64,000 nucleotides of DNA from NCBI RefSeq assembly GCF_030265065.1, contig NC_080406.1, positions 15,849,094-15,913,093 of the forward strand, given 5' to 3'. Under the pieces are notes generated by a model that searched no databases, was not told the DNA's origin, and saw only the letters and a program-made list of their open reading frames with translations. The DNA comes from Corythoichthys intestinalis. Lineage: Eukaryota. The position numbers were made by a program, and so were the translations under genes. Positions 27,666 through 62,856 of the stretch are shown here, one piece after another (position 1 is the stretch's first letter; every line of letters begins with the position of its first letter).

Positions 27666-27793
27666 GGGTACTTGTGTTTGACAAGTGTTCTGTGCTTTTG
27701 GACCTGAAAAACCTGTCCTTTAAGGAGAGGCGGAAACTGAAGTTGTCTGTGACAAAAAATGGAGGAAGCATTTGTTACGTGGTCACAGAGCAA
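27666..27793 (+). CDS. parp4: parp4 exon, BRCT part 1 (xVLVFDKCSVLLDLKNLSFKERRKLKLSVTKNGGSICYVVTEQ); enters in phase 1 from an unlocated upstream exon
   Basis: Acceptor cctttgtacag|GG and donor CAA|gtaaga. An in-frame stop (taa at 27635) blocks any upstream extension. Parallels the human BRCT region GIFANCIFCLKVKYLP...KENGGKF. Confidence 0.7.
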
Positions 27794-29955
27794 GTAAGAG
27801 AACAAGCACTTGTTTGCATTGGTTTTCTCTTTTGCTTTTCACATGATAACAAAGTACAGTGCTATATTCTCTCTGTGGTTATGTGTGTACATTTTCTCAA
27901 GAATATTGTCGATGACAGAGGCAGCAAATAGGTGTAACACTATAAAACCCCACTAATGAACTGAATAGCAAGAGTTGCAAGATAGTTAAGGCAATTATTT
28001 TCTTCAACATGTTTTGTTCCTGGAAAAAAAATATTGTCGCAAAATGGTTTGTTCTGGGAGACTAATAAGTATTGTTAGATGTACGCAATTGTGCTGTTTC
28101 CTTGGCAACTTGGGTCAGAAGGCGCCAACACTTTGGACCATACAGCGATAAATAAATGAATAAATCAATGATTGAATGAATAAGTGACAGCCTGTCACAG
28201 GAAACATTGAAAATCAGAGACACAACATAAAATTATAAGATGACTTATCCTTAAAAGCAGTAGGATTCTAAAATGAGCTTATTTTCTGTATTTTACACTG
28301 TTTTTTTGTCTGGTTGCTTTGTTCACTTGGGAAAAAAAACATCTCAAAAAGAAACTTCTTTTTCTCCCCTCGTGAAAATAATAAAAGGTAATCTCGGGGT
28401 GGCTATAATTACCTGAATATTACTTCTGAGACTGCCATGCGTTGTCTATCTTTACCGCAACACACACATAGCATTTTAGTAATCTATTTTCTGTACTGCG
28501 AAGTGAAAGTTTAAACGCTTGCATATTCCTAAGTAAAGTCTAATGATGTTTCATTTTAAATAGGGTTTCAACGTTTGCTCATGTTAAGGGCCATACCCAT
28601 GCTGACATTTCCATCTGGGCTTGATGTGGGTTTTAATATGGGCGTATGGGCATCCGTTTTGCTCACCACGGCAAATCATCAGTTTCATCTCATGCATCTT
28701 CCTGTCTAGCACCCATTTGTTCTCATATTTGTTCTCACAACATTCATTAAATGAAATATATATCATATTTAATATAGAAATGCAATGTCCAAAAAAAGGC
28801 TTAAAACCATGCCGTTACGCTAACAGATAACTGATACTTTGATATTACCTGATTTCAATGCAGGTGACGCTCCCAATTCCCACTATTTTTAAAAATTATG
28901 ATTACGCACAGTAATAGCTACGGTAATCCAAAAAACATATTATTTTCAAATTTAGGCATGTGGCCGTATGAGATTCTGAAGGTATGATAACCTTCAGCCA
29001 AAATATCACGATTTCACGGTATGACGGTATTCCAATTACAGCTCTAAAATGTGTTACTTTAAGATATCTGGAAAAAAAACTTTTCCCCCATTTAACAGGA
29101 TTTTTATTTTTCAAAACATATGAGCAAATTGGAACATAAGTATAATTTAAAGTTTAAATAAATAAATATGACAAAAAAATTCATATATTCTAAATAAAAT
29201 TGAAATAAATGCAGTCTTTTAGGTGAGCCTAAACTCAAAGCCACAGCTCAACATTATTACCGTCAGAACAAAAATAATTGCTATATAATTGGGATTATTT
29301 TCCATAAAATGCACGTGCGTATGACTCATATCATATACACACACTCTCCTCAACACATTTGCCAGAGAGACAAAAACACCACATTTTACCACCGCTAGAC
29401 ACACTAAACACGCTAGTTAAGAGTTTACTCTCGTAGCTGGTTGGAAACGTTAATGACAGTGTTAACTAACTTTAAATTTTGTATAAATCTGAAATCATAT
29501 TGGAGCTATTGCCTCCCTGGCAGCCATCCTCCGCAAACATTTTTTACATGTCGGTTGGCCCTCCTCCTCCATGCCGTGGCCGTCTGTAAATTTTCTGTAG
29601 CCAAAGTATTCCCATACCAGCGATGTTGTTTTCTTCGATGGAGGAAAAAGTTCAGAAGTTTCACCTCCTTTACATCGTGTAGCACAGCTGACTCACTGAA
29701 ACTGAGCAACAACCAGTGTGGGGGGTGGGGGGGGGGGGTTGAGGTTTGCAGCTGGAAGCTAGGGATTTCTCCCTGAATTTTGGGGAGATTAAAAAATTGG
29801 TAATACCTTAGGGACGGTATGACGGAAAATTTTAGCAGTTTTGAAACCGTGGCGTTTTCATACCACGGTATACCTTGAAACCGCTAATCGGTACATGTCT
29901 ATTTTCAATATGTAAATCAACATTCCCAGCACTTAATTGTGTATCTCATTTGCAG

Positions 29956-30181
29956 TGCTCCTTTGTCGTGGTCAGCAACGTATCACACCTAAGCACCAAC
30001 AGGCTGCACAGAATCCACAAGTTGCAAACACCAGTGGTGGGGGTGGAATATGTGCATAACTGTCTGGAGAAAGGAATTCTCTTGCCTGTGGAGGACTACA
30101 AGCTTGACCTGTCCACCCTCGATTCACCCTCTTACATGCCTCCTCTCCCCTCAACTCAGCCAAAACCATTCAAAAATGAAG
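29956..30181 (+). CDS. parp4: parp4 exon, BRCT part 2 (CSFVVVSNVSHLSTNRLHRIHKLQTPVVGVEYVHNCLEKGILLPVEDYKLDLSTLDSPSYMPPLPSTQPKPFKNE)
   Basis: Acceptor tcatttgcag|TGC and donor GAAG|gtaata, ending in phase 1. Parallels human CTHIILDN...IANPDFIWKSIREKRLLDVKNYDPYKPLD. Confidence 0.8.
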
Positions 30182-33218: not shown

Positions 33219-34605
<1,387 letters not shown>

Positions 34606-35781
34606 TCGCTATCCCTAGTGTCCCACAAGAGAAGGTTTTTATCTAGGTATGACATTTGACTGCTAGTTTTGAATAATGACATTGGTTTTTGAACTTGTTG
34701 TTGATGATAGGATGATATCCATTAAAACTGGAAATCTGATTTTTTGGGGAAGGAAATCTTTTTTTTTTCTTTTTTTTATTTAGGGCCCTATCGTCAGGCC
34801 TTAGTTTGGAGTCAACAAGAGAAAGCCTGCTGTGGGAAATAGAATATATAGTATTTGCGTGTTGGGAAAAAACTGTAAAAGATTTAGGTTTTGCTTGCAC
34901 AAATCCCACCTTGATATATGCCCACGAGCGGTGCAGATAGAGAGTGCCATAAATATGTGGTGCAGACGTGAGGACTAATGGAAAAACAGCCCATGCAGCA
35001 TGTGCACTCTCCTCTGTTTACACAGCGCAGACAGATTGAATCAGATCCAACACCCACCCTGTTCCAGCCAAGCGACTCTTGGCTCTTGTCGATCACGGCC
35101 TTCATTTGCTCATGGCGACGACACGTATTAAAGAGTTGTGCTCTCTCTTGGCTGATGTATGGGCTTGTTGATAAAGCGTCTGCGTCAGGCTCGCTCGACT
35201 CGACACAAACGGCTCGAGGTCATGCAAAGGTTTCTAGCAGCAAACTATGCCAAAAAAAAAACATTCTGAGTTTGCACATTAGGTGTGTGCGTGGGAGATT
35301 TCAGGCACATTTCTCTGGAAGTACAGTGTCAGGGGTGTGGATTCCTTATTCGTCCAGTCTGTCAGAGAGCTGATGACACTGCTGTATCATGTGACAAAAT
35401 GTGTGTATGTGTGACTTTTTTTATGTATTTGCAGTGAGCAGAGACGTCGTGGAGCCTTCCAAGGATGAAGCCTGCCTTCCTGATAAGAGTGAAAGCATAC
35501 CGGACACGTTCAGGTGTGTATAGACGCTGGGCACAGCAAGGTGTTGCATTATGAGAATAGGATTAGGTGTAGAAACCAGTGACGCAGCATGCAACTTGTG
35601 GACCCATAGCGCCGCTCCCTGGTTCTTTCCAGCGTCTTGCCGGTCATCTAAACCAGCTTGTAGGCCACACCCATTTATGTCAAACGTAATTGTGAAAGAG
35701 CCTAATACTATCGTCAATAAACATTCTATAATTATCTGAATGTACGAAGAAACTACAGCTATAGTATATCTATTTCTAATA

Positions 35782-36823
35782 TACAGTTGGGCAAATAAGT
35801 ATTTAGTCCATCACTAATTGTGCAAGTTCTCCCACTTGAAAATATTAGAGAGGCCTGTAATTGTCAACATGGATAAACCTCAACCATGAGAGACAGAATG
35901 TGGAAAAAAAAACACAAAATCACATTGTTTGATTTTTAAAGAATTTATTTGCAAATCATGGTGGAAAATAAGTATTTGCTGAATACTAAAAGTTCATCTC
36001 AATAATTTGTTATGTACCCTTTGTTGGCAATAACACGGCCCCAAAGCATGATGTTTCCACCCCCATTCTTCACAGTGGGTATGGTGTTCTTCGGATGCAA
36101 TTCAGTATTTTTTCTCCTCCAAACACGAGTACCTGTGTTTCTACCAAAAAGTTCTATTTTGGTTTCATCTGACCATAACACATTCTCCCAGTCCTCTTCT
36201 GGATCATCCAAATGCTCTCTAGCGAACCGCAGACGGGCCTGGACGCATGCTCTCTTCAGCACGGGGACACATCTGGCAGTGCAGGATTTGAGTCCCTGGC
36301 GGCGCATTGTGTTACTGATAGTAGCCTTTGTTACTGTGGTCCCAGCTCTCTGTAGGTCATTCACTTGGTCCCCCTGTGTGGTTCTGGGATTTTTGCTCAC
36401 CGTTCTTGTTATCATTTTGACGCCACGGGGTGAGGAGGGAGTTGAAAGTCTGTGTTGCCCAACGACAGCCCCAAAACATCACTGCTCTAGAGGAGATCCG
36501 CATGGAGGAATGGGCCAAAATACCAGCAACAGTGTGTGAAAAGCTTTTGAAGAGTTACAGAAAACGTTTGGCCTCCGTTATTGCCAACAACGGGTACATA
36601 ACAAAGTATTGAGATGAACTTTTGGTATTGACCAAATACTTATTTTCCACCATGATTTGCAAATAAATTCTTTAAAAATCAAACAAAATGATTTTCTGGG
36701 TTTTTTTCCACATTCTGTCTCTGATGGTTTACCCATGTTGACAATTACAGGCCTCTCTAATATTTTCAAATGGGAGAACTTGCACAATTAGTGGTTGACT
36801 AAATACTTAATTGCCCCACTGTA
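35782..36823. mobile_element. Tc1/mariner family D copy, internally deleted (~1.04 kb), with ~220-bp ITRs and a transposase remnant on the minus strand
   Basis: The ITR tacagttgggcaaataagtatttagtc...gggagaacttgcacaatt at 35782-36000 is inverted at 36600-36823. Minus-strand ORF 35999-36415 has the Tc1 motif NVLWSDETKIELFGRNTGTRVWR. Confidence 0.8.
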
Positions 36824-38002
36824 TAGCTCAGCTTCTGGTCCCCATTACCCGCGAAAAACGAGGGATCACTGTAAAACGAATCAATTTGTTTACATAATGT
36901 ACGTAATTTTCTCTACTGTGCCACAACATTTTCGTGCTCCCCTACCTGTCAAATACCACTTAACCACTGAGTACAGTGTATGTAAGAAGGCTTCAATACA
37001 GGGGAAAAATAAGGCTGGCCTGTCAGGCCTTTGAAACTTTTGGCATATCTGCTGACTGCTCAGACAATGCCCCGCTCATGAGTCAAATGTTAAACAGCTA
37101 CCACTACTTGTTACTGTAGAAAATGGATGCTACTTTGTCTAGCTTATTACCGACATGAATTTCGCTGGTTCATGCTGCTTGACTTTTTTAGACACGGGTG
37201 GGGCAAAACTCAGTAGTTTGGATATGTTTTTTTCGCTCATGATTTTCATTCGTGTTTCTGATATTTTGAATACTAACTCTCGCTACATTTCAGCCACCGG
37301 CATAGGTAAGTAATATAATGGGATTGACAGGTTTGTTTTATTTATACTGTAGCCAGGCTTTTGCAATACTGGCCGTGTGTGGAGAATTGTGGGACTGTTC
37401 CATGTTTTTATGCAGACAGTCCTCAAAGTGAGGGCTTTTGACTGATGCTTTTGACACGAGGCGACTTCCATCCGTCAAATGTGTTCTTCGCCAGCGTGAC
37501 AAGAATGGAAAATATTTTCCTCGCCACGTGCCGTTTCAATTCGCCCTTGGTGGTGTGGCGAATGAGTAGCGCGAACCCTGGGTGCCCCAATCTTTGCACC
37601 TATATAAATCTTTTTCGATGCATGTTGCACATCTTCCGTTGGTCCAAAAACCTAGTTTCAATTCGAAATCTTACTTTCACCATCAGTTTTTTTTTTTTTT
37701 TTTGGATACAGTAGATCACAATGAAGTTGCCGATCAAAACATCCAATGATTTATTAATGAAAATAATGAAAACGTCCGGGGTGCCAAAACTTTTTCATAC
37801 CACTGTACATGTCATGGTTGTTTATAAAAGTGATATATAGTGTGTGAGGACTATTACCCTCTTTTGGCTGCACATCAGTGACAACTGTTATAGAGTAGCA
37901 GGCTTATCATGCGAAAGCTCCCTCAGTAGTGACTCCTGAATAACTTCAATGAAAATACTTATCTTGGCACTTCTGCTGTGAATTTTCCCAGGATTCATAC
38001 AG

Positions 38003-38070
38003 TACAGGATGAAGATCTTCCAGCATACCCGGTCGACTTCAATGTGGCCAAGTATTCCATCTTTCATAAG
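38003..38070 (+). CDS. parp4: parp4 exon (V)QDEDLPAYPVDFNVAKYSIFHK
   Basis: Tandem acceptor catacag|tacag. The phase-1-compatible site is at 38003; an alternative at 38008 would need phase 0. Donor AAG|gtgact. Parallels human HLPQDFEVAKYNTLEK. Confidence 0.65.
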
Positions 38071-38146: not shown

Positions 38147-38236
38147 GATGACAGCAGAACTTGGTGTGTGCTGGAGCTGCAGAGCGCCAAGGGATACAAA
38201 GGGCGGCAGTACCGTGTCATTGCCTACTGGAAAGAT
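38147..38236 (+). CDS. parp4: parp4 exon DDSRTWCVLELQSAKGYKGRQYRVIAYWKD
   Basis: Acceptor cttgtctgtgtag|GAT and donor GAT|gtaagt, phase 0 to 0. Confidence 0.75.
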
Positions 38237-38304: not shown

Positions 38305-38463
38305 CGCACCGAACAACATGACATTGTGACATTCCCCTCAACTTCCGAGCTGGCTGTTGAGGTCTACCAGAATATGATTGACAGCCTGCTTTCTTCGGGT
38401 CAGTGCTTATGGACCGGTAGCCCCCCAAACGACCAGAACCTGGGATCGTACCCGCTGCAGCAG
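38305..38463 (+). CDS. parp4: parp4 exon RTEQHDIVTFPSTSELAVEVYQNMIDSLLSSGQCLWTGSPPNDQNLGSYPLQQ
   Basis: Acceptor ttgtattaacag|CGC and donor CAG|gttatc. The weaker internal GT at 38399 was rejected because it breaks the phase with the next exon. Confidence 0.7.
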
Positions 38464-39588: not shown

Positions 39589-39726
39589 CTGCTGCTGGAG
39601 GAAAAGCTTAACACAAGATCCTTGTCACAAGACGTGGCTGTCTTTGTGGAGCTGCTTTGGACTGAGGCCTTGGGTTGCCTTGGTGACGTTCTTCGAGTGC
39701 CTGTTCAGAAGCTGAGCCTCAATGAT
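39589..39726 (+). CDS. parp4: parp4 exon LLLEEKLNTRSLSQDVAVFVELLWTEALGCLGDVLRVPVQKLSLND
   Basis: Acceptor ttcaactggcag|CTG and donor GAT|gtaagg. Parallels human LLLEEVMNSSTLSQEVSDLVEMIWAEALGHLEHMLLKPVNRISLND. Confidence 0.8.
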
Positions 39727-39826: not shown

Positions 39827-42320
39827 ACAGTGGTATGAAAATGTATCTGAACTCTCACATTTCTGCATAAAATCAGCATCAAATATGATCTGATCTTTTT
39901 CAAAATCACACAGATGAAAATACAGTGTCTGCTTTAAAACAACCCAAACATTTATAGGTTTTCATAATTTAATGAGGATTGCATACGAACAATGACAGAA
40001 GGGAGGCGGGGGGAGTAAGTGAAGCCTCTGCCTAAGGAGACTTAAAGAGCATTTGAAACCAATTTTTACCAAAAATTTTAAGTCAGGTGTGTGCCCAATC
40101 ACTGATGAGTGGTTTAAAGCTGTCCTTCCCGCTATAAAACACACACCTGGTAAGAAATGTCTTGATGAGAAGCATTGTCTGATGTGCATCATGGCTCGGT
40201 CAAGAGCTTCTCTGAAGACCTGCAAGCAAGGATTGCTGGTTTTTATAAAGCTGAGAAAGGATGCAAAACCATCTCTAAAAGTCTGGATGTTCATCAGTCG
40301 ACAGTCAGAGAAGTTGTCTACAAATGGAGAGAGTTTGGCACTGTTGCTTCTCTCTCAAGGAGTGGCCATCCACCAAAGATGACGCCAATATTTCAGCGCA
40401 GAATACTCAGAGAACTCAAGAACCCTAGAGTGTGTGCTGAAGACTTACAGAAATCACTGGTACAGTCCAATATTTCTGTGCACACATCAATTATATGTAA
40501 AACTATGGCCAAGAATGGTGTTCATGGGAGGACTCCACGGAGGAAGCCACTGCTGTCTAAGAAAAACATTGTTGCTTGTTTAATGTTCACAAAAAGGCGC
40601 TTGGACACTCCGCAGAAGTTTTGGCAAAATATTTTGTGGACTGATAAAACCAAAGTTAAATATTTTGGGAGTAACACACAACGTCATGTGTGGAGGTAAA
40701 ATGGAACAGCTCACCAGCATCAACACCTCATCCCCACCGTGAAGCATGGTGGACGGACCATCATGATTTAATAATAATAATAATAATAATAATACATTTT
40801 ATTTCTAGAGCGCTTTTCAAACACACAAAGACGCTTCACAAGAGACATGGAATCACAGTACGATAAAATGGTATTAAAAGGATAAAAAATTAAAAGCACA
40901 ATAAAAAGAAGTAAAAATATGACAGCTAGGGGTTATGGTGGGTAAGAAAGAGTGAACAGGTGTGTTTTCAGTCTAGATTTGAAAAGTGGTAGAGTAGATA
41001 TGCTGCGGAGATCAGGAGGTAGGGAGTTCCAGAGCTGGGGGGCGTAATGACTAAAAGCTCTGGAACCAAAGGTGGAGAGGCGGACACGGGGGACGGAGAG
41101 GGGAGGAATAGTGGTAGAGCGAAGTGAACGGGTTGGATTGTTTAGATGGAGAAGATCGCAAAGGTAGGGAGGGGCCAGGCCATGGAGTATTTTGAAGGTG
41201 ATGATGAGGATTTTGTAATTGATTCTTTGTTTGACGGGAAGCCAGTGAAGTTGACGGAGGATTGGGGTAATGTGGTGTGTTGCGGGGGTTCGTGTGATGA
41301 GGCGTGCTGCTGAGTTCTGGAGGAGCTGCAGTTTTTGGAGGGACTTGTTAGGGAGACCGAAGAGCAGTGAGTTGCCATAATCGAGCCGGGAGGTTATTAG
41401 ATTACAGACCAGGGTGGAAGCGGTATGGCGGGTGAGAGAAGGGAGGAGGCGAGAAATGTTGCGAAAGTGGAAATAGGCTGATCTGGTGATGCTGTTGATA
41501 TGTGACCGGAAGGAAAGTGTGCTGTCGAGGATGACACCCAGACTCTTAACCTGAGACAAAGGAGAGATCGGTAAATTGTTGATTGTAATGGAGAACTTAT
41601 GGACATTGGAGAGCGTTGCGGTGGTACCAATTAAGAGGACCTCTGTTTTGGAGCTGTTAAGTAGGAGGAAGTTGGAGGAGAACCGGAGAACAGATTTGGG
41701 GCTGTTTTGCTGCCTCAGGGTCTGGACAACTTGCAATCATTAATGGAAGAATGAATTCAAAAGTTTTATCAGGATGTTTTGCAGGAAAACCTGAGGCCGT
41801 CTGTCAGACAGTTGAAGCTAAAAAGAGGATGGATGCTGCAACTAGACAATGATCCAAAACACAGAAGTAAATCAACTTCAAAATGGTTTAAGAAAAACAA
41901 AATACACATTGTGGAGTGGCCAAGTCAAAGTCCAGCCCATTGAGATGCTATGGCATGACCTAAAGACATCGATTCATGCCAGACATCCCAGGAATCTGAC
42001 TGAACTACAGCAGTTTTGTTGAGACAAATGGGCCAAGATTAGTCCTGATCGATGTGCCAGAATGATCTGCAGCTACAAGAAGTGTCTAGTTGAAGTTATT
42101 GCTGTCAAGGGGGTGGGCACAAAATATTAAATGTGATGGTTCACTTACTCATTTTCCCCCTTCTGTCATTGTTTGCATACTATCCTCATTAAAATATGAA
42201 AACCTATAAATTTTTGTGTGGTTTTAGTTCAAGCAGAGACTTTTATTTCATCTGTGTGATTTTGACAAAGATCAGATCACATTCAATGGTGATTTTCAGA
42301 TACTTGTTCATACCACTGTA
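39827..42320 (+). mobile_element. Tc1/mariner family C element carrying a nested L2 3' fragment
   Basis: Left ITR tacagtggtatgaaaatgtatctgaa..., right ITR ...ttcagatacttgttcataccactgta. Transposase ORF 40175-40699, then a C-terminus after 41737 with frameshifts. Confidence 0.8.
40769..41736 (-). mobile_element. L2/CR1-clade LINE 3' fragment inserted into the Tc1 transposase gene
   Basis: Minus-strand ORF 40933-41736 has the LINE ORF2 C-terminus ([18 protein letters not shown]...[14 protein letters not shown]). The 3' end sits at 40769 with an (AAT)n tail. Confidence 0.75.
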
Positions 42321-42522: not shown

Positions 42523-42690
42523 GTGAGCAGAGCAGAGGGCTTGTTGATTCAGGCTCAAGAAAAACTAAATGTGGCACAGCATGTCACAGCTCTCGAGCTT
42601 CTGAATGAAGTTTACACACTGCTGCCACACAGAAAACCTAATACAGCTTGCGATGCAAAGCTTATCTCCCAAAAACTGGACCTCTGTCAG
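42523..42690 (+). CDS. parp4: parp4 exon VSRAEGLLIQAQEKLNVAQHVTALELLNEVYTLLPHRKPNTACDAKLISQKLDLCQ
   Basis: Acceptor tgtttgttgttag|GTG and donor CAG|gtatgt. Parallels human VSKAEGILLL...KADLCQ. Confidence 0.85.
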
Positions 42691-44925: not shown

Positions 44926-45077
44926 TTAATTCGAGACATCCTGAACATGAACGAGATGATGCTTAAAAGCCCCACCCTTTCCAGCTTTGGCAAGTTTCGC
45001 GCCCTGAGGTGCAGTATTGAAGTGGTAGAGCCCGACTGCTCTGAATACACCACTGTGTCGTCTCTGCTCCAAGACAG
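44926..45077 (+). CDS. parp4: parp4 exon LIRDILNMNEMMLKSPTLSSFGKFRALRCSIEVVEPDCSEYTTVSSLLQD(R)
   Basis: Acceptor tgtcatttctag|TTA and donor ACAG|gtgaga, ending in phase 2. Parallels human LIRDMVNVCETNLSKPNPPSLAKYRALRCKIEHVEQ. Confidence 0.85.
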
Positions 45078-48218: not shown

Positions 48219-48350
48219 AGCCGTGCATATCCATCAGGTGCTCCGTGTCAGTAGAGCGGTGGAACTTCAGACCTTTAACAGCAAGCTCGGCAACGTCAAG
48301 TCCCTCCTTCACTCCTCCAGTCCCAGCAACTTTGTCGGAATTCTGTCGCG
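48219..48350 (+). CDS. parp4: parp4 exon, start of the PARP catalytic domain: (R)AVHIHQVLRVSRAVELQTFNSKLGNVKSLLHSSSPSNFVGILS(R)
   Basis: Acceptor gcctttttcag|A and donor CG|gtgggt. Contains the catalytic-triad His within the motif LLHSSS (human LLHGSP). Confidence 0.8.
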
Positions 48351-49364: not shown

Positions 49365-49463
49365 TGGTTTGCTGTTACCTTGTGTTGGAGTGATGAAGCA
49401 TGGGATTGTACGAACAGATGCTGGCCGTCTTGGAAATGGCATATACTTCACCAATAGCATGAG
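49365..49463 (+). CDS. parp4: parp4 exon GLLLPCVGVMKHGIVRTDAGRLGNGIYFTNSM
   Basis: Acceptor ccctctcttcttag|T and donor ATGAG|gtcagg. Contains the GIYF(T/S)xS motif with the catalytic Tyr. Confidence 0.85.
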
Positions 49464-49679
49464 GTCAGGAAGCAATTGTTTTAAAGCAACACTAGGTAAC
49501 CTTTCAACCTTTATAAAATATTTTCATAACATTTGTGTTGATATGTTGACTGACAACTAGTTGAATGACGCCTCTTTTATGTCTTGAGGGGGTATGTATT
49601 GCTTTAATTGGCACTAATTAACATTGGCCCGGCTTTCACTCGCTGGCATGACAGCCCATCCCAACCAAACTTGTCATCG

Positions 49680-50653: not shown

Positions 50654-50819
50654 CACATGCCTAAAATACTCAAAGCCCAGTGCCACAGACGGCTCTCGGC
50701 TGCTGCTGGTGTGTGACGTAGCCCTGGGGCACAGCCGTCAAATGAGAGACCTCGTAATTGGTGAGGCCCGTAAAATGGACCGCATCCACGACGTGGCCGA
50801 AGTCAACTCTTTGTTTATG
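50654..50819 (+). CDS. parp4: parp4 exon STCLKYSKPSATDGSRLLLVCDVALGHSRQMRDLVIGEARKMDRIHDVAEVNSLFM
   Basis: Acceptor cgatccatacag|C and donor ATG|gtaggg. Parallels human STSIKYSHPGETDGTRLLLICDVALGKCMDL. Confidence 0.8.
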
Positions 50820-51919: not shown

Positions 51920-53496
51920 TACAGTGCTGGCCAAAAGTATTGGCCCCCCTGCAATTCTGTCAGATAATGCTCGATTTCTCCCACAAAATGATTGCAATTA
52001 CAAATGCTTTGGTAGTAATATCTTCATTTATTTTGCTTGCAATGAAAAAACACAAAAGAGAATGATTTTTTTTTTTTAACCTAACCCTAACCTAACCTTT
52101 TAATTATTATAATTTTGCACTAAACTCCCAAAATGGGCTGGACAAAAGTATTGGCACCTTCAGCCTAATACTTGGTAGCACAACTTTTAGACAAAATAAC
52201 TGTTAACAACCGCGTCTGGTATCCATCAATGACTTTCTTACAATCCTCTGCTGGAATTTTAGACCATTCTTCTTTGGCCAACTTCTCCAGGTCTCTGAGA
52301 TTTGAAGGGTGCCTACTCCAAAATGCCATTCTCAAGGCTCTCCACAGGTGTTCTATGGGATTCGGGTCTGGACTCATTGCTGGCCACTTTAGAAGTCTCC
52401 AATGCTTTCTTTGAAACCATTTTCTAGTGCTTTCTGAAGTGTGTTTTGGGTCATTGTCCTGCTGGAAGACCCATGATCTCTGAGGGAGACCCAGCTTCCT
52501 CACACTGGGCCCTACATTATGCTGTAAAATTTGTTGGTAGTCTTCAGACTTCATAATACCATGCACACCGTCAAGCAGTCCAGTGCCAGAGGTACCAAAG
52601 CAACCCCAAAACATCACGGAACCGCCGCCAATGTTTGACTGTGGGGACCGTGTTCTTTTTTTTTTTTTTTTTTTTGAAGGCCTCCGTTTTTTTTCCCCCT
52701 TGTAAGCTCTATGTTGATGCCTTTTCCCAAAAAGCTCTACTTTTGTCTCATCTGACCAGAGAAAAGTCTTCCAAAACATTTTTGGCTTCCTCAGGTAAGT
52801 TTTGGCAAACTCCAGCCTGGCTTTTTGATATCTTTGGGTCAGAAGTGAGGTCTTCCTGGGTATCCTACCATGAAGTCCCTTTTCATTCAGACACTGACTG
52901 ATATTACGGGTTGACACTGTTGTACCCAATGCAGAACAGCTTGAACTTGTTTGGATGTTAGTCGAGGTTCTGTATCCACCATCCGCACAATATTTCATTG
53001 AAATCTCTCATCAATTCTTCTTTTCCGTCCACATCTAAGGAGGTTAGCCACAGTGCCAATGGCTTTACACTTATTGATGACACAGGGCGCACGATAGACA
53101 CAGGAACATTCAGGTCTTTGGAGATGGACTTGTAGCCTTGAGATTGCCCATGCTTCCTCACAATTTTGCTTCTCAAGTCCTCAGACAGTTCTTTGGTCTT
53201 CTTTCTTTTCTCCATGTTCAATATGGTACACACAAGGACACAGGACAGAGGTTGAGTCAACTTTAATCCATTTTAACTGACTGCACGTGTGATTTAGTTA
53301 TTGCCACCACCTGTTATATGCCATAGGTAAGTAACAGGTGCTGTTTTCCCATTCTCTTATGTGTATTTTCATTGCAAGCACAAGAAATGAAGATATTACT
53401 ACCAAATAATTTGTAATTGCAATCTTTTTCTGGGAGGAATTGAGCATTATCTGACAGAATTGCAGGGGTGCCAATACTTTTGGGCAGCATTGTATA
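51920..53496 (-). mobile_element. Tc1/mariner family A, full-length but frameshifted (transposase on the minus strand)
   Basis: ITRs tacagtgctggccaaaagtattggc (51920) and gccaatacttttgggcagcattgtata (53496). Minus-strand ORFs 52958-53260 (MEKRKKTKELSEDLRSKIVRKHGQSQGYKSISKDLNVPVSIV) and 52165-52998 (...WSDETKVELFGKRHQHRAY...FQQDNDPKHTSESTRKWFQRKHWRLLKWPAMSPDPNPIEHLW). A telomere-like ttaacctaaccctaacctaacc lies at 52079-52100. Confidence 0.85.
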
Positions 53497-54368: not shown

Positions 54369-54510
54369 GGTGATGAGTACATGGTGTACAGTCCCGACCA
54401 GGTCATGCTAAAATATGTCGTCCGGTTCAGCCTTGATGGAGACGAACTGAAGGCATTCAGTCCAGCTGTAGATACCTCGGTTGAGACTACTCCAACCCCT
54501 TCTAGCTCAG
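54369..54510 (+). CDS. parp4: parp4 exon GDEYMVYSPDQVMLKYVVRFSLDGDELKAFSPAVDTSVETTPTPSSS
   Basis: Acceptor ctaccaactccag|GGT and donor CAG|gtgagc, ending in phase 1. The catalytic Glu is in DEYMVY (human DEFVVY). Confidence 0.85.
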
Positions 54511-55114: not shown

Positions 55115-55263
55115 TGGCCTTTCCTGATGATGATGATGATAGCTTTGGAAGCATAATAACCGGATTGGACGATGTGACTTCAGGACTGTTAGACAGCTCA
55201 GGCCAGCAGCTCCCCCTGCTGGCCGTGCACATTAAGTGCAAGTTGATCGATTTGCTTTCTCAT
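55115..55263 (+). CDS. parp4: parp4 exon (V)AFPDDDDDSFGSIITGLDDVTSGLLDSSGQQLPLLAVHIKCKLIDLLSH
   Basis: Acceptor tgtctttttctaag|TG and donor CAT|gtaaga. Parallels human DASGNLVPLEDVHIKGRIIDTVAQ. Confidence 0.8.
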
Positions 55264-55370: not shown

Positions 55371-55502
55371 GTCATCATCTTCCAAAAGTATACCAACCTA
55401 AGCAATGTGCCAATTGAGGCAAAGTATGTCTTCCCTTTGGATGAATATGCAGCCGTGTGTGGCTTTGAAGCCTTCATTAATGGAAAACATGTGGTGGGGC
55501 AG
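55371..55502 (+). CDS. parp4: parp4 exon, VIT domain start: VIIFQKYTNLSNVPIEAKYVFPLDEYAAVCGFEAFINGKHVVGQ
   Basis: Acceptor ttccttttag|GTC and donor CAG|gtacat. Near-identical to human VIVFQTYTNKSHVPIEAKYIFPLDDKAAVCGFEAFINGKHIVGE. Confidence 0.9.
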
Positions 55503-55538
55503 GTACATTATCTTAAAGTATCCTTTCAATGCAAAAAA

Positions 55539-57702
55539 TACAGTGGTATGAAAAAGTATCTGAATCTTTTGGAATTTCTCACGTTTCTGAATAAAATCAT
55601 CAAATGTGATCTGATCTTTGTCAAAATCACACAGATGAAAAAACTGTCTGCTTTAATTAAAACCACCCAAACATTTATAGGTTTTTATATTTTAATGAGG
55701 ATACTGTGCAAACAATGTCAGAAGGGGGGGATAATGAGTAAGTTAACCATCACATTTAATATTTTGTGCCCCCCCCTTTGGCAGCAATAACTTAAGTATC
55801 TGAAAATCACCATTAAATGTGATCTGATCTTTATCAAAATCACACAGATGAAATAAAAGTCTCTACTTGAACTAAAACTACACAAAAATTTACAGGTTTT
55901 TATATTTTAATGAGGATAGTATGCAAACAATGACAGAAGGGGGGAAATGAGTAAGTGAACCATCACATTTAATATTTTGTGCGCCCCCCTTGGCAGCAAT
56001 AACTTCAACCAGACGCTTCCTGTAGCTTCAGATCAGTCTGGCACATCGATCAGGACTAATCTTGGCCCATTCTTCTCCACAAAACTGCTGCAGTTCAGTC
56101 AGATTCCTGGGATGTCTGGAATGAATCGCTGTCTTTAGGACATGCCACAGCATCTCAATGGGGTGTAAGTCTGGACTTTGACTTGGCCACTCCAGAACAT
56201 GTGTATTTTGTTCTTCTGAAACAATTCTGGAGCAATTCTGTGTTTTGGATCATTATCTTGTTGCAGCATCGATCCTCTTTTTAGCTTCAACTGTATGACA
56301 GGCAGCCTCAGGTTTTCCTGAAAAACATACTGATCAATTTTTGAATTTATTCTTCCATTAATGATTGCAAGTTGTCAAGGCCGTGAGGTAGCAAAACAGC
56401 CCCAAATCATGATTCTCCCCGCACCATGCTTCACGGTGGGGATGAGGTGTTGATGTTGGTGAGCTGTTCCATTTTTCCTCCATACATGACGTTGTGTGTT
56501 ACTCCCAAACAATTCAACTTTGGTTTCATCAGTCCACAAAAAATTTTGCCAAAGCTTCTATGGAGTGACCAAGTGCCTTTTTGCGAACATTGAACGAGCA
56601 ACAATGTCTTTTTTAGACAGCAGTGGCTTCCTCTGTGGAGTGCTCCCATGAACACCATTCTTGTCCATAGTTTTACATTTAGTTCATGTGTGCACAAAGA
56701 TGCCAGTGCCAGTGATTTCTGTAAGTCTTTAGCAGACACTCTATGGTTCTTGTTTACCACTCTGCACTTTCTGCGCTGAACTCTTAGCATCCTCTTTGGT
56801 GGACGGCCAATATTTGGGATAGAAGCAACAATACCACTCTCTCTCCATTTGTAGACAACTTTTCTGAACATCCAGAGTTTTACAGATGGTTTCGTATCAT
56901 TATACAAATCAACAATCCTTGATCGCAGGTTTTCAGACTGCTCTTTTGACGGATCCATGATACACATCAGACAATGCTTCTCATCAAGAAAATTCTTACC
57001 AGGTGTGTGTTTTATAGTAGGCTGGGCAGCTTTAAACCACTCATCAGTGATTGAGCACACACCTGACTTAAATTGTTTGGTAAAAATTGGTTTCAATTGA
57101 ACCCTTGATCTCAGAACTGTGAGGCGGATGTGCTAACCACTCAGCCCCCGTGCCGCCCGTCCAATGTTTACATTTGGAGTAAATTAGTCAGGCGCCTTTT
57201 TGCTTCTATTTATTTTACAAACTATTTATTTTACAAACTCTTGCTGTGCCTCTTATTGAAGAATGGTATTATGGATAATTATTTTATTGTTTTAAATCTA
57301 CTTAAAAATGAATCAAAGCGATTGGCTATGTATGTCTTTTTTTTTGTTTGTTTGTTTGTTTAGTTTTTTTGTTTTTTACAAACGTGCAGGTATGGACGCA
57401 ATTATTTTTTCCGAACGTATTAGGGCAGGATCCTAGGTTTTACAAAACCCTGCTTGGTGTGGACATGGCCTATGTCTCCTTAGGCAGAGGGTTCACTTAC
57501 TTATTTTCCCCCTTCTGGCATTGTTTGCATGCTATACTCATTAAAATATGAAAACCTATAAATGTTTGGTTGGTTTTAGTTAAAGTAGACACTATTTTTA
57601 CATCTGTGTGATTTTGACAAAGATCAGATCCCATTTGATGGTGATTTTATGCAGAAATGTTACAAATTCCAAAAGGTTCAGATACTTTTTCATACCACTG
57701 TA
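55539..57702 (-). mobile_element. Tc1/mariner family C copy with a tandemly duplicated terminal ITR and a ~400-bp foreign insertion
   Basis: ITR copies at 55539-55790 and 55800-56000. Transposase on the minus strand (ORF 56431-57096, MKPIFTKQFKSGVCSITDEWFKAAQPTIKHTPGK...). The other ITR ends ccactgta at 57702. The 57103-57510 block interrupts the element. Confidence 0.75.
57103..57165 (-). mobile_element. tRNA-derived SINE head (A and B boxes), truncated, inside the Tc1 insertion block
   Basis: Minus-strand reading GGGGGCTGAGTGGTTAGCACATCCGCCTCACAGTTCTGAGATCAAGGGTTCAATT has an A-box-like GAGTGGTTAGCAC and a B-box-like GGGTTCAATT. It abuts Tc1 sequence directly. Confidence 0.5.
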
Positions 57703-57881: not shown

Positions 57882-57968
57882 GTAAAGGAGAAAGAGACGG
57901 CCCGTAAGCAGTACAAGCAGGCTATAGAGAAGGGCCATGGCGCCTACCTCATGGACCAGGACGCCCCT
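57882..57968 (+). CDS. parp4: parp4 exon VKEKETARKQYKQAIEKGHGAYLMDQDAP (VIT)
   Basis: Acceptor ttggttgtcag|GTA and donor CCT|gtacgt. Parallels human IKEKEEAQQEYLEAVTQGHGAYLMSQDAP. Confidence 0.9.
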
Positions 57969-58052: not shown

Positions 58053-58217
58053 GACGTTTTCACCATCAGCGTTGGCAACCTGCCAGCAGGCGCCAGCGTG
58101 CTCATTAAAGTGACCTTTGTGTCCGAGCTCATCATCAAGGACGGGAGCATTTTCTTTTCCCTGCCGGGAAGTGTTGCACCGTGGCAGGAAAGTGCAGCGC
58201 TCAACCAAACAACGCAG
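58053..58217 (+). CDS. parp4: parp4 exon DVFTISVGNLPAGASVLIKVTFVSELIIKDGSIFFSLPGSVAPWQESAALNQTTQ (VIT)
   Basis: Acceptor ccctgctttgcag|GAC and donor CAG|gtaaga. Parallels human DVFTVSVGNLPPKAKVLIKITYITEL...VAPWQQDKALNENLQ. Confidence 0.9.
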
Positions 58218-58336: not shown

Positions 58337-58383
58337 GTGACTGTGCAAAAAGTGTGTGTGACGGATGATGCAGCCAGTACAAG
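58337..58383 (+). CDS. parp4: parp4 exon VTVQKVCVTDDAAST(R)
   Basis: Acceptor gctctcaacag|GTG and donor ACAAG|gtttgc, ending in phase 2. Confidence 0.75.
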
Positions 58384-58429
58384 GTTTGCTTGAAAGTAGT
58401 TCTTTGAATATTATATTCCATTATTACAT

Positions 58430-58435
<6 letters not shown>

Positions 58436-58495
<60 letters not shown>

Positions 58496-58505
58496 TTTTT
58501 TTTTT
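58436..58505. repeat. (AT)n microsatellite (~27 units) followed by poly-T
   Basis: Direct reading. Confidence 0.95.
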
Positions 58506-58649
58506 CATTTCGTCCACACTCAAACATTCTAAAAACAACAAAATATTTTTCCATTCAGGAAGAGATGCAACAATTCAGCAATTAATCGACAACTAATCGA
58601 TTAGCAAATTAATCGCCAACTATTTTAATAACCAATTATTGGTTAGAGC

Positions 58650-59900
58650 AACACTTGGTAATTTTTCAGTTTTGGTCGGTTTTAGCGACACCGGTGGATG
58701 AAAGCGGTAGTGTTTTGCCTTAAAGAGCATACGACACGAGAAAAAAAGTCTTAAATGGCATTATTATGTGAATTAGAATCATATTTTGAGACGATTCGAC
58801 TATATACAACAATTTAGCAAAGCGCAGATGACGAGAAATTAGTCTTTTAATCTGCCGGTTAGCCACGCTTACCATTATAGGGCTTTAGCGTCCCCAACAG
58901 GTGGATGACGTCAGCGGTAGACTGGGCTCATCGGTTTTACTATTCAGCCCATTGAGGGGGAATTATTCAGAACAAGGAAAACGCGACGAGGAGAGTCGCA
59001 AAATGTCATTGTTTCAGTCTCTCTACTCCAGTATTTTTACAGGATATTCTTTTTATCCAAGTACTTTTCCCCAATAGCTATATAAATGGCTTGAGAAGGA
59101 CCAGTCAGCCCGTCGAGGGGGAACTATTCACAACAGGAAAGCGCGACGAGGAGAGCGGCAAAATGTCATTGTTTCTGTCTCTTTACATCAATATTTTTAC
59201 AGGATATTCTTTTTATCCAAGTATTTTTCCCCAATAGCTATATAAATGACTTGAGAAGGACCAGTCAGCCCGTCGAGGGGGAACTATTCACAACAGGAAA
59301 ATGCGACAATGCGAGTGGCAAAATGTCATTGTTTCTGTCTCTTTACTTCAATATTTTTACAGGATATTCTTTTTATCCAAGTATTTTCCCCAATTGCTAA
59401 ATAAATGGCATGGTCATGACAAATAACAGTCTTGTGCTGAATGGAATATGAAATAATAAAAATGCATTTATTCAGGACGACATGGCAAAATTACTCCATA
59501 ATGGTCAAAACTGTCGACTTCACCTTTACTGTCGCACCTCCCGAACGATATTTTATGACACCTAAATCAGACATATGTCATTTCCCTTCCCCGGCTTCGG
59601 AGAATGTAAACAAACCAGAAGGCGTGACAGCTAGCTGACATGCTAACCCGAACCGAGTGATGTTTCAAAGTCTTCGAAGCGGAAAATCACACATATCTAG
59701 CCTGGATTATTTGACATGACGACCCGGTTGTCGATTGTCTTCGTGGATCGGCAAACCGGCCGGTGGAGAGCAATTTACATTTCGTTCCCCGGAGGAGGGT
59801 GGCTGGAGTTGTTGTGCAGCTAACGTGCTGCTAATGAGCATGAGGAGAGCTTTTCACATGCCTATCAATGATCAAACGTAAGTAGTCCTTTATTTAAAGG
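58650..59900 (+). repeat. Repeat family R, copy 1, with an internal 3 x ~180-bp tandem array (58930-59400)
   Basis: The tandem unit gagaaggaccagtcagcccgtcgagggggaactattcacaacaggaaa.cgcgac...ggcaaaatgtcattgtttctgtctctttac.tcaatatttttacaggatattctttttatccaagta...aatagctatataaatg occurs three times. Copy 3 has a single unit. Contains tgacgtca. Confidence 0.65.
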
Positions 59901-59989
59901 AAGTTTGTAGTGTTTACTTTGTAATCGCTGCATTCGTATTTGACATAATACAAAACAAGATGTTTACTCACTTCCTCGTAAGTCCAATG

Positions 59990-60830
59990 GTCCCACAGTA
60001 AATATCCACGGTGAATGGGAACCTTTTGAAACTCCAAAAAGGCGCATACACCTCTCCATCATACAGAATGATTTTTCTGCAGCCGTTTGGCTGGCGTGAT
60101 GCGAAAAATAAACGTATTAATCCGCAAAATCAGCTGAATCCTTCGTCCTCATACACAACAGTACACTGTATAGTGAAGAGGACGTCTTCTACCGTACACG
60201 TCACAGCGCCCTCCTCCTCAATGCCAGACCGAAGCCAGAAGTCACTCATTTTCATGGCGCGGGATTCAAAAAACGAAATAAATATAGCGATCGCTTCCAT
60301 ACACATCCAAGCGGTCCATACCATTCAGGGGCATAAAATATCGCGTGTATTATTAAATAAACATGCTTTTTCGTGTCACATGCACTTTAAGGAACACTGC
60401 GTTTCCCATGAGGACCAGCGCACACCTGTACAGTGTCGTAAAATCATCAATCAATTAAAAACCAATCTCCCAGTCGCCTGCAGATGGATTAAACATTTCT
60501 GTTTCCAGCGGCTGTGTGAAGGATGAATAATAATCAGGTAATGAATCCAGTTGTGGCTAAACAATAGCATATAAGACGATTAGTAACAGTGTGGCTTAGT
60601 GTGGCTAACGCCCCCAGAGGAGTTTGGTTGGAGGGGGGTTTTCACACCAGTGATTAAAAAATCGGGCCAATATTTATTCTGTTTATCCTGGTAGCCTGCC
60701 TTTTTTTTCTTCCTCAGACAAAACTTTTTGTCTTTTTATTTACTCTGCCATATTTGCGGAATTCGCGCGAAAGCGTTCGCATCGATTTCCGTCTTTATAA
60801 TGAATGGGCAGTCAGGACATTTTTAGTTTG
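59990..60830 (+). repeat. Repeat family S, copy 2
   Basis: See 49680-50560. ORF 60011-60526 (171 aa) has no recognisable domain. Confidence 0.45.
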
Positions 60831-62054
60831 TTTTTTTTGTGTGTGTGGCAGGGTTCCTGCCAACCTCCTCAATGTTAATTTGTGCCGGTGAAAGCGATAC
60901 AGACCCCCTCAAGATACAGTATAAAAGATGTGTCATTCAACTAGTTGTCAGTTGACATATTATCACAAATGTTATGAAAATATTTGATAGAGGTTGAAAA
61001 GTTACCCAGTGTTGCTTTAAGGACCTTCTTCACCTTAAACTTGTCTAAAATCTTGAAAATATAACATTACATATACATATACAACTACTTTCTTAATTGT
61101 AAATATTATCAGAGTTCTTCATTGTATTTTTGTTAAGTCAAAGTATGGCATGAAAAAAAATCTGCTTTTACTTTGGAAAACAACAATTCACATTTTTGCC
61201 AATTTTCAGATATCTTACTGTCTAAACTGGCTTCTTAATAAGGCTGCAACAACTAATCAATTAAGTAGATGCCAACTAATTTAATAATCAATACAGTTGT
61301 AGAACACAGTTTAGATTTTGAATGAAATAGTCATCTATTTTATCTTCATTTGTACATACAACATGCCTAAAACAACTTCAAGATAAATTGTGATGGTTAT
61401 TGGTACAAAGTGACACTTTAGGGCTGCAGCTATCGATTATTTTAGTAATCGATTAATCGATGAACTAGTTAGTTCGAATAATTGAGTAATCGGGTTGGGA
61501 ATATTAAAAATTAAAATACCTGAGCTGAGCCTCAAACGGTATAAAAAATAAATAAATGAGGATCTAAGTACAACAAAAAAACAATTTGCTTGCTAATTTA
61601 CATAGCAAAAGTCCGCTAGCTTAAATGCAAAAAAATGCTAACGGTGTTTTTTTGTTTTTGTTTTTGTTTTTTCAAACAATGCTCTTAACAAATGGTTCAA
61701 ACACATATTCCCACCAAAAAAAAAAAAAAAACGGCTAAATATACCTGTAAACTAAATTACGAATACGTTAAAACAACATTAGCTCAAACAAAAACTTAGC
61801 TTATGTTGGTCTTAACAGGGAGCAGCTGGATTCAGCCATGTGAAATGACTTACAGTATGTCATATTTACTGTTGCCACTTGAGGGCAGTGTATCCACCCA
61901 AACCAATAAGACTAAATACACTTTTAAAACAGAACATTACAACGACACTTTAATTAAACGAATGCTCGAAGCAGCAAAATTTAATTTGAATCTTTTTTTC
62001 TGATCGAAATACTCGAGTGTGTGCTAATAAAGTCAATTGTCCCTCCCCCCTCAG

Positions 62055-62136
62055 AGAATTTAGCCTGGACATGTCCATTGAGATGCAGAATGAGATCAGC
62101 AGCCTGCAATGTATTACACATGAAGTCAAGATAAAG
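62055..62136 (+). CDS. parp4: parp4 exon (R)EFSLDMSIEMQNEISSLQCITHEVKIK
   Basis: Acceptor tccctcccccctcag|A and donor AAG|gtttgt. Parallels human QSFSLTMSIEMPYVIEFIFSDTHELKQK. Confidence 0.85.
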
Positions 62137-62438
62137 GTTTGTCACATATTTTTAACTTTATTTAATATTATTGGACTGGAATAAACTCCTTTTCGTGTAT
62201 TTTGAAGGTGCATCTTTTTAAAAAATGTACAAGGCTCTTTGTTTTTATGTTGTTGTTTTTACTTTCCAGGACTGTTTTTTTAATGTTTTAATTCACTTGA
62301 AAACAGCTGTGATCTACAGTGCTTCAAGAGCTCACACAGATGCCTTTCAACATCATAATTCGTCACAATACCTTGACAGCACTGATCATTTTTCTCTCTC
62401 TGACTAGGTTATTAAACATACTGAGTCTTATTTCACAG

Positions 62439-62576
62439 AGGACTGACTGCAAGGCTGTGGTGAGGGTGCTGCCGGGGCAAGTTATGTACCCAGAAGGATT
62501 CCAGCTGTCAGTCACTCTGTCGGATGTTCATCTACCCAGGATGTGGGTGGAGGAACACCCTGACAAGGACAGCCAG
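62439..62576 (+). CDS. parp4: parp4 exon RTDCKAVVRVLPGQVMYPEGFQLSVTLSDVHLPRMWVEEHPDKDSQ
   Basis: Acceptor cttatttcacag|AGG and donor CAG|gtctga. Parallels human RTDCKAVISTMEGSSLDSSGFSLHIGLSAAYLPRMWVEKHPEKESE. Confidence 0.9.
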
Positions 62577-62666
62577 GTCTGACAGTTCGGTGTCTGTCTG
62601 TCAGTCTTCATCTTCTATTTCGCTCCTGGAATTCTTTTTTTTCTCACCTCATTGTTTATCCCACAG

Positions 62667-62856
62667 GCCTGCATGTTAGTTTTCTACCCCAAGTTTGACA
62701 TCAAACCCACTTCCGGATCCAATGAAGTTATCATTTTGCTTGACACGTCCAAGTCCATGAATGGAGACCTTCTTTTCCATGCCCAGAAGATTGCACTGCA
62801 TACCATCAAAACCCTCAAGGGCGACTGGAAAATCAACGTCTTCTTGTTTGGCATAG
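62667..62856 (+). CDS. parp4: parp4 exon, vWA domain start with MIDAS motif: ACMLVFYPKFDIKPTSGSNEVIILLDTSKSMNGDLLFHAQKIALHTIKTLKGDWKINVFLFGI(G)
   Basis: Acceptor ttgtttatcccacag|GCC and donor ATAG|gtcagt, ending in phase 1. Parallels human ACMLVFQPDLDV...EVIICLDCSSSMEGVTFLQAKQIALHAL...VNIIQFGTG. Confidence 0.9.

Follow-up and report, generated by a model that had tools for sequence, protein, structure and literature searches.

Positions 27666 to 62856 on the + strand of the window, i.e., the whole stretch of 64,000 nucleotides analysed here, most probably represent the 5' portion of the parp4 (vault PARP) gene of a percomorph teleost, divided among 21 coding exons, and judging from the sequence we put the probability of this reading at about 95%. 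As annotation this is routine, the locus being an ordinary and already known teleost gene that is well described in vertebrates, with solved structures. The practical value lies in a corrected gene model of 21 exons, which also draws attention to the absence of a conserved start codon and to a remodelled catalytic stretch.

Identification of the gene

With nine teleost PARP4 proteins as tblastn queries, the coding pieces formed a collinear chain on the + strand from 27666 to 62856. The spliced window protein was aligned in a single stretch to residues 5-918 of human PARP4 (PDB 11jf/9bw6/9bw7) with about 44% identity overall and an E value of 2e-207, in contrast to 6e-15 for PARP2, about 3e-12 for PARP1 and 1e-5 for ITIH1. 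In a database of 5.8 billion proteins, fish PARP4 matched with E values of 1e-261; all 15 of the best 15 matches were PARP4 or "poly [ADP-ribose] polymerase" with PARP4 domain sets, and the named top matches were nearly all of the PARP4 type, with a few hypothetical or unnamed proteins. The match to PARP4 is far beyond chance, and the best matches are PARP4, which bears out the identification made in the initial annotation. Among the available sequences, the closest are those of syngnathids (seahorse and pipefish).

The ITIH proteins, which have the VIT-vWA module in common with the window protein (E 1e-5 to 7.5e-5), were rejected as an identity since they contain no BRCT or ART domains and the similarity is confined to about 110-140 residues.

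The product encoded in the window, about 915 codons, corresponds approximately to human PARP4 residues 3-918 of 1724. Because the model stops at about residue 918, the greater part of the vWA domain, as well as the major vault protein (MVP)-interaction domain, would lie beyond the window; a search for a further parp4 exon in 62857-64000 returned only noise, and no reference PARP4 segment of at least 6 residues was left without alignment to the window model. By homology, the product would be an ADP-ribosyltransferase carried inside vault particles, which it would presumably enter via the C-terminal MVP-interaction domain encoded downstream of the window.

The window outside parp4 consists of transposon debris, with only transposons in the upstream 27 kb. 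The UPF0220/TMEM50-type neighbour located upstream of killifish parp4 was not found in the window, and an Rfam scan of the whole window gave no matches. The searches run agree with the proposal that the window has no host gene other than parp4, though they leave room for small exons of another gene.

Exon structure

The exons of the corrected model are as follows (a slash marks a splice junction).

27666..27793, + strand: exon 1 in the window, N-terminal half of BRCT; entry phase 1; ttgtacag/G and CAA/gtaaga; 82.5% identity to the seahorse protein
29956..30181, + strand: exon 2, C-terminal half of BRCT and linker; exit phase 1; 69% identity to seahorse
35435..35513, + strand: exon 3, 79 nt, linker; encodes (V)SRDVVEPSKDEACLPDKSESIPDTF(R); tblastn and splice sites
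37992..38070, + strand: exon 4; acceptor gaattttcccag/G; R-IHTVQDEDLP versus R-IYTEQDEDIP in seahorse
38147..38236, + strand: exon 5, putative WGR-like region; tblastn and splice junctions
38305..38463, + strand: exon 6, putative WGR-like region; tblastn and splice junctions
39589..39726, + strand: exon 7, start of the helical domain; weak Pfam PARP_reg match at residues 286-370
42523..42690, + strand: exon 8, helical domain; tblastn and splice junctions
44926..45077, + strand: exon 9, helical domain; tblastn and splice junctions
48219..48350, + strand: exon 10, ART fold; His of the H-Y-E triad in LLHSS
49365..49463, + strand: exon 11, ART fold; D-loop and triad Tyr in GIYF; exit phase 2; donor CATGAG/gtcagg
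50654..50819, + strand: exon 12, ART fold; acceptor ccatacag/C; 3' half (about 50735-50819) altered
54369..54510, + strand: exon 13, ART fold followed by linker; triad Glu in GDEYMVY
55115..55263, + strand: exon 14, linker and start of the VIT region; tblastn and splice junctions
55371..55502, + strand: exon 15, VIT; Pfam VIT at residues 621-730; 79.5% identity to human
57882..57968, + strand: exon 16, VIT; splice junctions and human comparison
58053..58217, + strand: exon 17, VIT; splice junctions and human comparison
58337..58383, + strand: exon 18, 47 nt; tblastn and splice junctions
62055..62136, + strand: exon 19; tblastn and splice junctions
62439..62576, + strand: exon 20; tblastn and splice junctions
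62667..62856, + strand: exon 21, start of vWA with the MIDAS-type motif DTSKS; canonical donor CATAG/gtcagt

In this model the frame runs uninterrupted through 915 codons, all 20 of the 20 introns are GT-AG, and the largest intron measures 5253 bp. The outer coordinates, 27666 and 62856, had been placed exactly in the initial annotation, both being canonical splice sites (the acceptor before 27666 reads ttgtgtcacctttgtacag/G). The gene spans about 35 kb in the window, its introns having been lengthened by insertions of Tc1/mariner and LINE elements.

What had been proposed between these ends was a set of 20 exons separated by 19 GT-AG introns of about 70 bp to 7.8 kb. Such a model does give an open frame (885 codons) with all introns GT-AG and sizes of 68-7821 bp. 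However, its supposed 7.8 kb intron contains the 79-nt exon at 35435-35513, flanked by tttatgtatttgcag/TG and TTCAG/gtgtgt, which in an intron-only tblastn search matched the seahorse PARP4-like protein at 15 of 26 residues (E 1e-6). Entering in phase 1 and leaving in phase 2, this exon fits between exon 2, which ends in phase 1, and the strong phase-2 acceptor at 37991, and exon 4 then starts at 37992, 11 nt upstream of the misplaced start at 38003. The window thus contains 21 parp4 exons, separated by 20 introns. As a separate observation, homology to distant species did not reveal exon 3.

It could also be imagined that the 20-exon structure is a genuine isoform, in which exon 2 is spliced to a cryptic acceptor at 38002 and 35435-35513 is skipped, and the resulting junction 30181/38003 is indeed GT-AG and keeps the frame. 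We consider this very improbable, given that the exon to be skipped is bounded by consensus splice sites and agrees in phase with its neighbours, that it is homologous to the seahorse protein and its flanks give seahorse residues in register, that killifish parp4 has an equivalent small exon, and that the polypyrimidine tract is better at acceptor 37991 than at 38002.

Domains of the predicted protein

The order BRCT, PARP, VIT, vWA put forward in the initial annotation agrees with both the Pfam order and the human alignment. The BRCT domain was recognized by Pfam BRCT_2 at residues 17-91 (38.6 bits, cut-off 27.3), and the region also aligns to the PARP4 BRCT crystal chains 9dfo and 9dev. In the accepted PARP4 architecture (PMC10711553), BRCT is separated from the ART fold by a WGR-like and a helical domain. 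Both probably have counterparts in the window protein. With the Pfam copy used, WGR-like_PARP4 gave no match in the window protein, and the reference proteins carry PF26166; PARP_reg reached 22.8 bits, under its cut-off of 26.8. In the AlphaFold model of the window HD-ART region, the helical domain is predicted with high confidence; the best fold match of the model is the solved PARP4 catalytic domain 8sx1/8sx2 (TM 0.73-0.80). The ART domain scored 78.2 bits with Pfam PARP, and the H-Y-E triad is intact (His 435 in LLHSS, Tyr 477 in GIYF, Glu 541 in GDEYMVY).

VIT was matched with 125.6 bits (residues 621-730) and VIT_2 with 44.8 bits. The description of the VIT exons as nearly identical to human overstated the likeness, the identities being 79.5%, 62% and 54.5% per exon and 65% together. 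About 48 N-terminal residues of the vWA domain fall in the window, with matches to VWA, VWA_2 and VWA_3 under the cut-off and with DTSKS as the DxSxS motif.

The start codon

Exon 1 reads GG GTA CTT GTG TTT where relatives have ATG GCN GTG TTT. The initiator ATG is found within the equivalent first exon in seahorse (protein) and in killifish, cichlid and Labeo (DNA), and the position of the acceptor that precedes this exon is shared by the window and other fish parp4 loci. With GTA in place of the conserved ATG, either an upstream exon supplies the start or it has been lost; translation would accordingly have to begin in such an exon, or may be impaired. On this point the initial annotation, which regarded the gene as partial at both ends, was right as to the truncation, but the start-codon exon that it placed upstream was an inference and no finding, the four other fishes having their ATG inside this first exon. 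Reading through upstream of exon 1 revealed no in-frame ATG before the TAA at 27635-27637. Comparison with the regions upstream in three fish loci, at both the translated and the nucleotide level, in search of an upstream ATG exon, gave transposon matches only, and the 15 phase-compatible ATG...N/GT candidates in the 27.6 kb upstream are about as many as expected by chance. Exons 1 and 2, which encode BRCT ahead of the first internal Met, show 82% and 69% identity to seahorse, a conservation that is sensible only if they are translated.

Remodelling of exon 12

Aligned at the DNA level with pipefish and killifish, exon 12 shows in-frame deletions of 6 and 12 nt, a net loss of 6 codons. The conserved ART stretch L..AP.G..SV.G, which follows the ALG strand and precedes the catalytic Glu, is not kept, and four otherwise invariant vertebrate residues are altered there. 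Private changes at invariant vertebrate positions amount to 7 of 149 in all, which is within the teleost range, and four of these seven cluster in exon 12. Two strands predicted confidently by AlphaFold in the killifish control are lost in this region of the window protein, and Cys occupies the exon 12 position that we take to align with Ser904 of PARP1, a residue in contact with nicotinamide.

Compensating frameshifts were rejected as the source of this divergence in view of the in-frame 6- and 12-nt deletions and of the exon 12 donor, which is conserved and aligned in the window, pipefish and killifish. Likewise, LSTFIKYFH, lying just past the exon 11 donor and resembling the canonical LSTSIKYSH, was considered as a duplicated exon piece, and the clean GT-AG junction to exon 12 was preferred. 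An alternative exon with the canonical APEGHHSVHGV stretch is absent across the whole window. The altered AP.G..SV.G stretch lowers our confidence in a normal catalytic function of the predicted protein, not in its identity as parp4, and the exon 12 deletions, together with GTA for ATG, appear to be lineage-specific peculiarities.

Constraint and possible decay

The dN/dS of the window gene is 0.31 in the comparison with pipefish and 0.17 with either killifish or cichlid. The VIT exons have values of 0.02-0.11, and the ART and vWA-start exons reach about 0.5 in the pipefish comparison. The overall values of 0.17-0.31 and the open frame of 915 codons argue for a maintained gene.

The possibility has to be weighed that we are looking at a decaying or recently inactivated parp4, an incipient pseudogene that has lost its initiator and part of the catalytic fold and has as yet acquired no stops or frameshifts. 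The replacement of an ATG conserved in four other fishes, the removal of AP.G..SV.G by in-frame deletions with the loss of two predicted strands relative to the control, and the dN/dS of about 0.5 in the ART and vWA-start exons would all fit, as would the copy of the pipefish Vanacampus margaritifer, in which a frameshift (4 nt deleted from a VIT exon) and a nonsense codon (GAA>TAA) suggest relaxed parp4 constraint in the group. Against it stand 21 exons without a stop or frameshift, 40 of 40 intact splice dinucleotides, the low dN/dS overall and particularly in VIT, the retained H-Y-E triad, the conservation of the BRCT exons before the first internal Met, and a number of private changes that is normal for teleosts. 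On balance, we regard such decay as unlikely.

It is a doubtful suggestion that parp4 may be losing its function in this lineage, with the start gone and two ART strands deleted or rewritten while VIT is strongly constrained. For syngnathiform fishes it would, if true and taken with the pipefish lesions, point to stepwise loss or non-catalytic repurposing of the vault PARP. Vault components are known to have been lost in particular lineages, and if the peculiarities are real and common to relatives, they would add one more such case, a modest evolutionary note with no new mechanism.

If the locus were a lineage-specific paralogue ("parp4-like") and the genome had a second, intact copy at another place, both the unusual start and the divergence of the catalytic stretch would be accounted for, and the relaxed ART exons are compatible with this. 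NCBI names of the seahorse, pipefish, anchovy and sturgeon proteins do contain "PARP4-like", but this label is an annotation convention and no evidence of duplication. Furthermore, a second copy is not evident in any data reached, and the exon number over the shared protein range equals that of the parp4 locus of the killifish Nematolebias whitei, as counted from tblastn matches, some of which cover two exons. We find a paralogue quite improbable.

Comparison with known PARP4 genes

The closest available sequence for exons 1-7 is the PARP4-like isoform X2 of Hippocampus comes (73.7% over 297 columns, nearly gapless), a protein of 302 residues outside which the catalytic stretch lies. It contains the segment encoded by window exon 3, and starts with MAVFDKCSV where the window reads (?)VLVFDKCSV. 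In Nematolebias whitei the same exons occupy about 15 kb, as compared with 35 kb in the window, and the annotation divides parp4 into two models. For exons 12-21, the identity to Vanacampus margaritifer ranges from 49 to 93% per exon segment, exon 12 being the lowest. Unlike the window, both the killifish and this pipefish keep the canonical APEGH.SVH. stretch. Human PARP4, of which only the first 53% or so is covered by the window, differs in the stretch EAPPGYDSVHGVSQT, whose equivalent in the window is shortened and rewritten, and in its initiator, as the window has no ATG at the homologous place. The human protein (11jf, 9bw6, 9bw7; 8sx1/8sx2) displays the same domain order, and the H-Y-E triad is common to both.

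Identity and domain organization

The gene under study (27666-62856, forward strand) is the 5' part of parp4 (vault PARP), as the initial annotation had proposed, and the window itself has a eukaryotic, fish-like composition (37-45% GC, many Tc1-type transposase fragments). Teleost PARP4 proteins were the top matches to the concatenated exon pieces (E down to 1e-261), and the named matches down the whole list, with some hypothetical or unnamed entries among them, were PARP4 or PARP4-like. Nine teleost PARP4 proteins gave, by tblastn, a single collinear plus-strand chain from 27674 to about 62870. Full-length human PARP4 (PDB) aligned in one stretch with the annotation's 20-exon model (residues 3-884 to human 5-918, E 2e-207), against 6e-15 or worse for PARP2, PARP1 and ITIH proteins.

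On single candidate exon translations, Pfam matches were strong for VIT and weak for PARP, BRCT and vWA. On the 915-residue protein they comprised BRCT_2 (17-91), PARP_reg (286-370, sub-threshold), PARP (407-558, 78 bits) and VIT (621-730, 126 bits), and the vWA domain appears to begin in the last exon, with a DTSKS MIDAS-type motif; the proposed order BRCT, PARP, VIT, vWA agrees with these matches. The H-Y-E catalytic triad is complete, and the best structural match to the HD-ART part, as modelled by AlphaFold (pTM 0.80), was the solved PARP4 catalytic domain (8sx1/8sx2, TM 0.73-0.80). The VIT exons, described earlier as nearly identical to human, are in fact 79.5, 62 and 54.5% identical by exon; they are about 90% identical to other percomorphs and form the most conserved part of the gene.

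A missed exon and the revised gene model

All frame-keeping GT/GC...AG pairs between adjacent blocks were enumerated and the joined peptides scored against references, the three junctions left by enumeration being settled from DNA reading. The earlier structure (20 exons, 19 GT-AG introns of about 70 bp to 7.8 kb) was reproduced as an open 885-codon frame with introns all GT-AG (68 to 7821 bp), and its outer coordinates proved to be exact splice sites, with ttgtgtcacctttgtacag/ immediately 5' of 27666 and the donor /gtcagt directly 3' of 62856 (slashes mark splice boundaries). It had nevertheless missed one exon and shifted one acceptor. The PARP4-like isoform X2 of the seahorse Hippocampus comes (302 residues), the nearest relative available, carries about 30 extra residues at the exon 2/3 junction of that model, and the killifish (Nematolebias whitei) locus has an extra small exon at the equivalent place. 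Searched against the supposed 7.8 kb intron, the seahorse linker matched at 35437-35514 (SRDVVEPSKDEACLPDKSESIPDTFR vs SRAVVKPSKDKTYPPDKSGSVLGKFR, 15/26, E 1e-6):

35435-35513, +, missed exon 3 of the corrected model, 79 nt, tttatgtatttgcag/TG...TTCAG/gtgtgt

This exon is entered with a single G from exon 2 (G+TG = Val) and left with two bases, AG, to a strong acceptor at 37991 (gaattttcccag/G; AG+G = Arg). Once it is included, window ...F-R-IHTVQDEDLP becomes the counterpart of seahorse ...F-R-IYTEQDEDIP, and the first 300 residues align nearly gaplessly with the seahorse protein at 73.7% identity. The junction 30181/38003 is very unlikely, since exon 3 supplies both matching phases and seahorse homology; that junction keeps the frame solely through a cryptic AG located by chance 11 nt inside exon 4. 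With exon 3 placed inside the supposed intron, the window contains 21 exons, separated by 20 introns of 68-5253 bp, every one of them GT-AG. The model leaves no unexplained reference segment of at least 6 residues, and no further exon was found in 62857-64000.

Transposons and repeats around the gene

The window holds the following elements.

748-3882, +, non-LTR retrotransposon (LINE), ORFs with Exo_endo_phos_2 endonuclease and RVT_1 reverse transcriptase
14870-18284, -, second LINE-type element, two RVT_1 ORFs with a further ORF upstream
24817-25185, 33347-34440, 35999-36612, 40175-42022, 52165-53260 and 56375-57096, degraded Tc1/Sleeping-Beauty-type transposases (HTH_Tnp_Tc3_2, HTH_SB, DDE_3 set)
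55598-56005, 213-bp unit, 1.9 copies, intron after exon 15
58433-58490, (TA)29
58944-59409, 160-bp tandem repeat, 2.9 copies, 91% matches, intron after exon 18

The first LINE explains why the window is GC-rich (51-58% GC) at its start; this block is neither a CpG island nor a host gene. The transposase copies, mostly within parp4 introns, account for a large share of the 35 kb over which the gene extends; in killifish the corresponding exons occupy about 15 kb. All upstream ORFs of at least 110 residues with a Pfam match were transposon-derived, as were the large sampled intronic ORFs, two sampled ORFs having no match; since Rfam at gathering thresholds gave no match either, the claim that parp4 is the only host gene in the window holds as far as testable.

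The 3' tail motif of the second LINE (HITPVL.SLHWLPV) is also present at 40933-41736 (-), within one of the parp4 introns, and again in the sequence flanking killifish parp4 (5806-6140 of that locus). ORF translations suggest a candidate related copy of the 160-bp repeat at about 63187-63380.

The initiator codon

The DNA of killifish, Labeo and cichlid has the ATG within the exon that corresponds to window exon 1, immediately 5' of GTG TT[TC]. For killifish and cichlid, this ATG stands one or two bases past an acceptor-like ttccag at the position of the window's acceptor, which is conserved in position. The seahorse protein begins MAVFDKCSV. Window exon 1 begins cag/GG GTA CTT GTG TTT GAC AAG TGT, with Val-Leu where relatives have Met-Ala (27666-27672; GTA CTT vs ATG GCN), and reading through upstream meets no in-frame ATG before the TAA at 27635-27637. 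The start codon, previously placed on a missing upstream exon, is hence missing from the site where relatives carry it, and not simply hidden beyond the annotated exons; the initiator has either moved to a normally non-coding upstream exon, as that proposal would have it, or been lost. Such an exon must end in ATG...N/gt. The upstream 27.6 kb offers 15 phase-compatible candidates, not above chance (e.g., ATG ACA G/gtctgt ending at 23814), and cross-species flank comparison for it returned transposon matches only.

Selective constraint and the exon 12 stretch

Against killifish and cichlid, dN/dS was 0.17, with synonymous sites close to saturation; against the pipefish Vanacampus margaritifer it was 0.31 (dS 0.46), or 0.11 for VIT, 0.50 for ART and 0.56 for the vWA start. 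The 915 codons contain no stop or frameshift, and all splice sites are intact. Our conclusion is that this is a maintained gene whose ART domain is under locally relaxed or altered constraint; an incipient pseudogene is improbable.

In a comparison with 18 vertebrate PARP4 proteins, 7 of 149 otherwise invariant columns carry a change private to the window protein, a number that is high, yet inside the teleost range. Four of the seven, together with small deletions, are confined to one exon 12 stretch, where canonical R-D-L-T-L-T-Q-A-P-E-G-H-H-S-V-H-G-V-R-R-T-P-N-x-x-S-E-F-E has become RDLVIGEARKMDRIHDVAEVNSLFM; no canonical version occurs elsewhere in the window. A mis-chosen splice site or frameshift pair was ruled out by DNA alignment with pipefish and killifish, since the deletions (6 and 12 nt) are in-frame and the donor position is kept. 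For the killifish protein, AlphaFold places two strands in this stretch with confidence (260-263 and 279-282; block means of pLDDT 73-97); with the same alignment it places none in the window protein (pLDDT below 50), D-loop pLDDT being low in both. This predicted strand loss is suggestive only, because pLDDT partly mirrors agreement with the alignment.

Beyond the exon 11 donor, read-through of 49497-49530 gives LSTFIKYFH, like canonical LSTSIKYSH, whose counterpart is truly encoded in exon 12 (STCLKYSK). The likeness probably arose by chance, the sequence being AT-rich, although it might conceivably be left over from an old exon rearrangement.

Comparison with other parp4 loci

The pipefish locus (GCA_051991255.1, CM124222.1) shows a 4-nt deletion in the VIT exon equivalent to exon 15 (locus positions 8190-8345) and a GAA>TAA change that puts a stop codon into its counterpart of exon 19 (12585-12690). 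The NCBI annotation there is limited to a 'PARP4-like' product of 81 residues; a pseudogene, or assembly errors, are possible. In killifish (GCA_014905685.2, locus positions 10001-35781), annotation divides parp4 between two neighbouring gene models, one for the N-terminal 992 residues and one for a part of 715 residues that includes PARP4_MVP-ID. About 6 kb upstream of them, and on their strand, is a UPF0220 (TMEM50-type) gene that has no equivalent in the 27 kb upstream of parp4 in the window.

An earlier study found most of PARP4 to be under purifying selection, with rapid evolution only in one large exon further downstream, and pointed out that several lineages have lost vaults (PMC4038475). 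The window gene is a known and ordinary one, correctly identified at the outset and almost correct in structure, and its domain layout, as far as the window covers it, is consistent with the published PARP4 architecture, BRCT-WGR-HD-ART-VIT-vWA-MVP-ID (PMC10711553).
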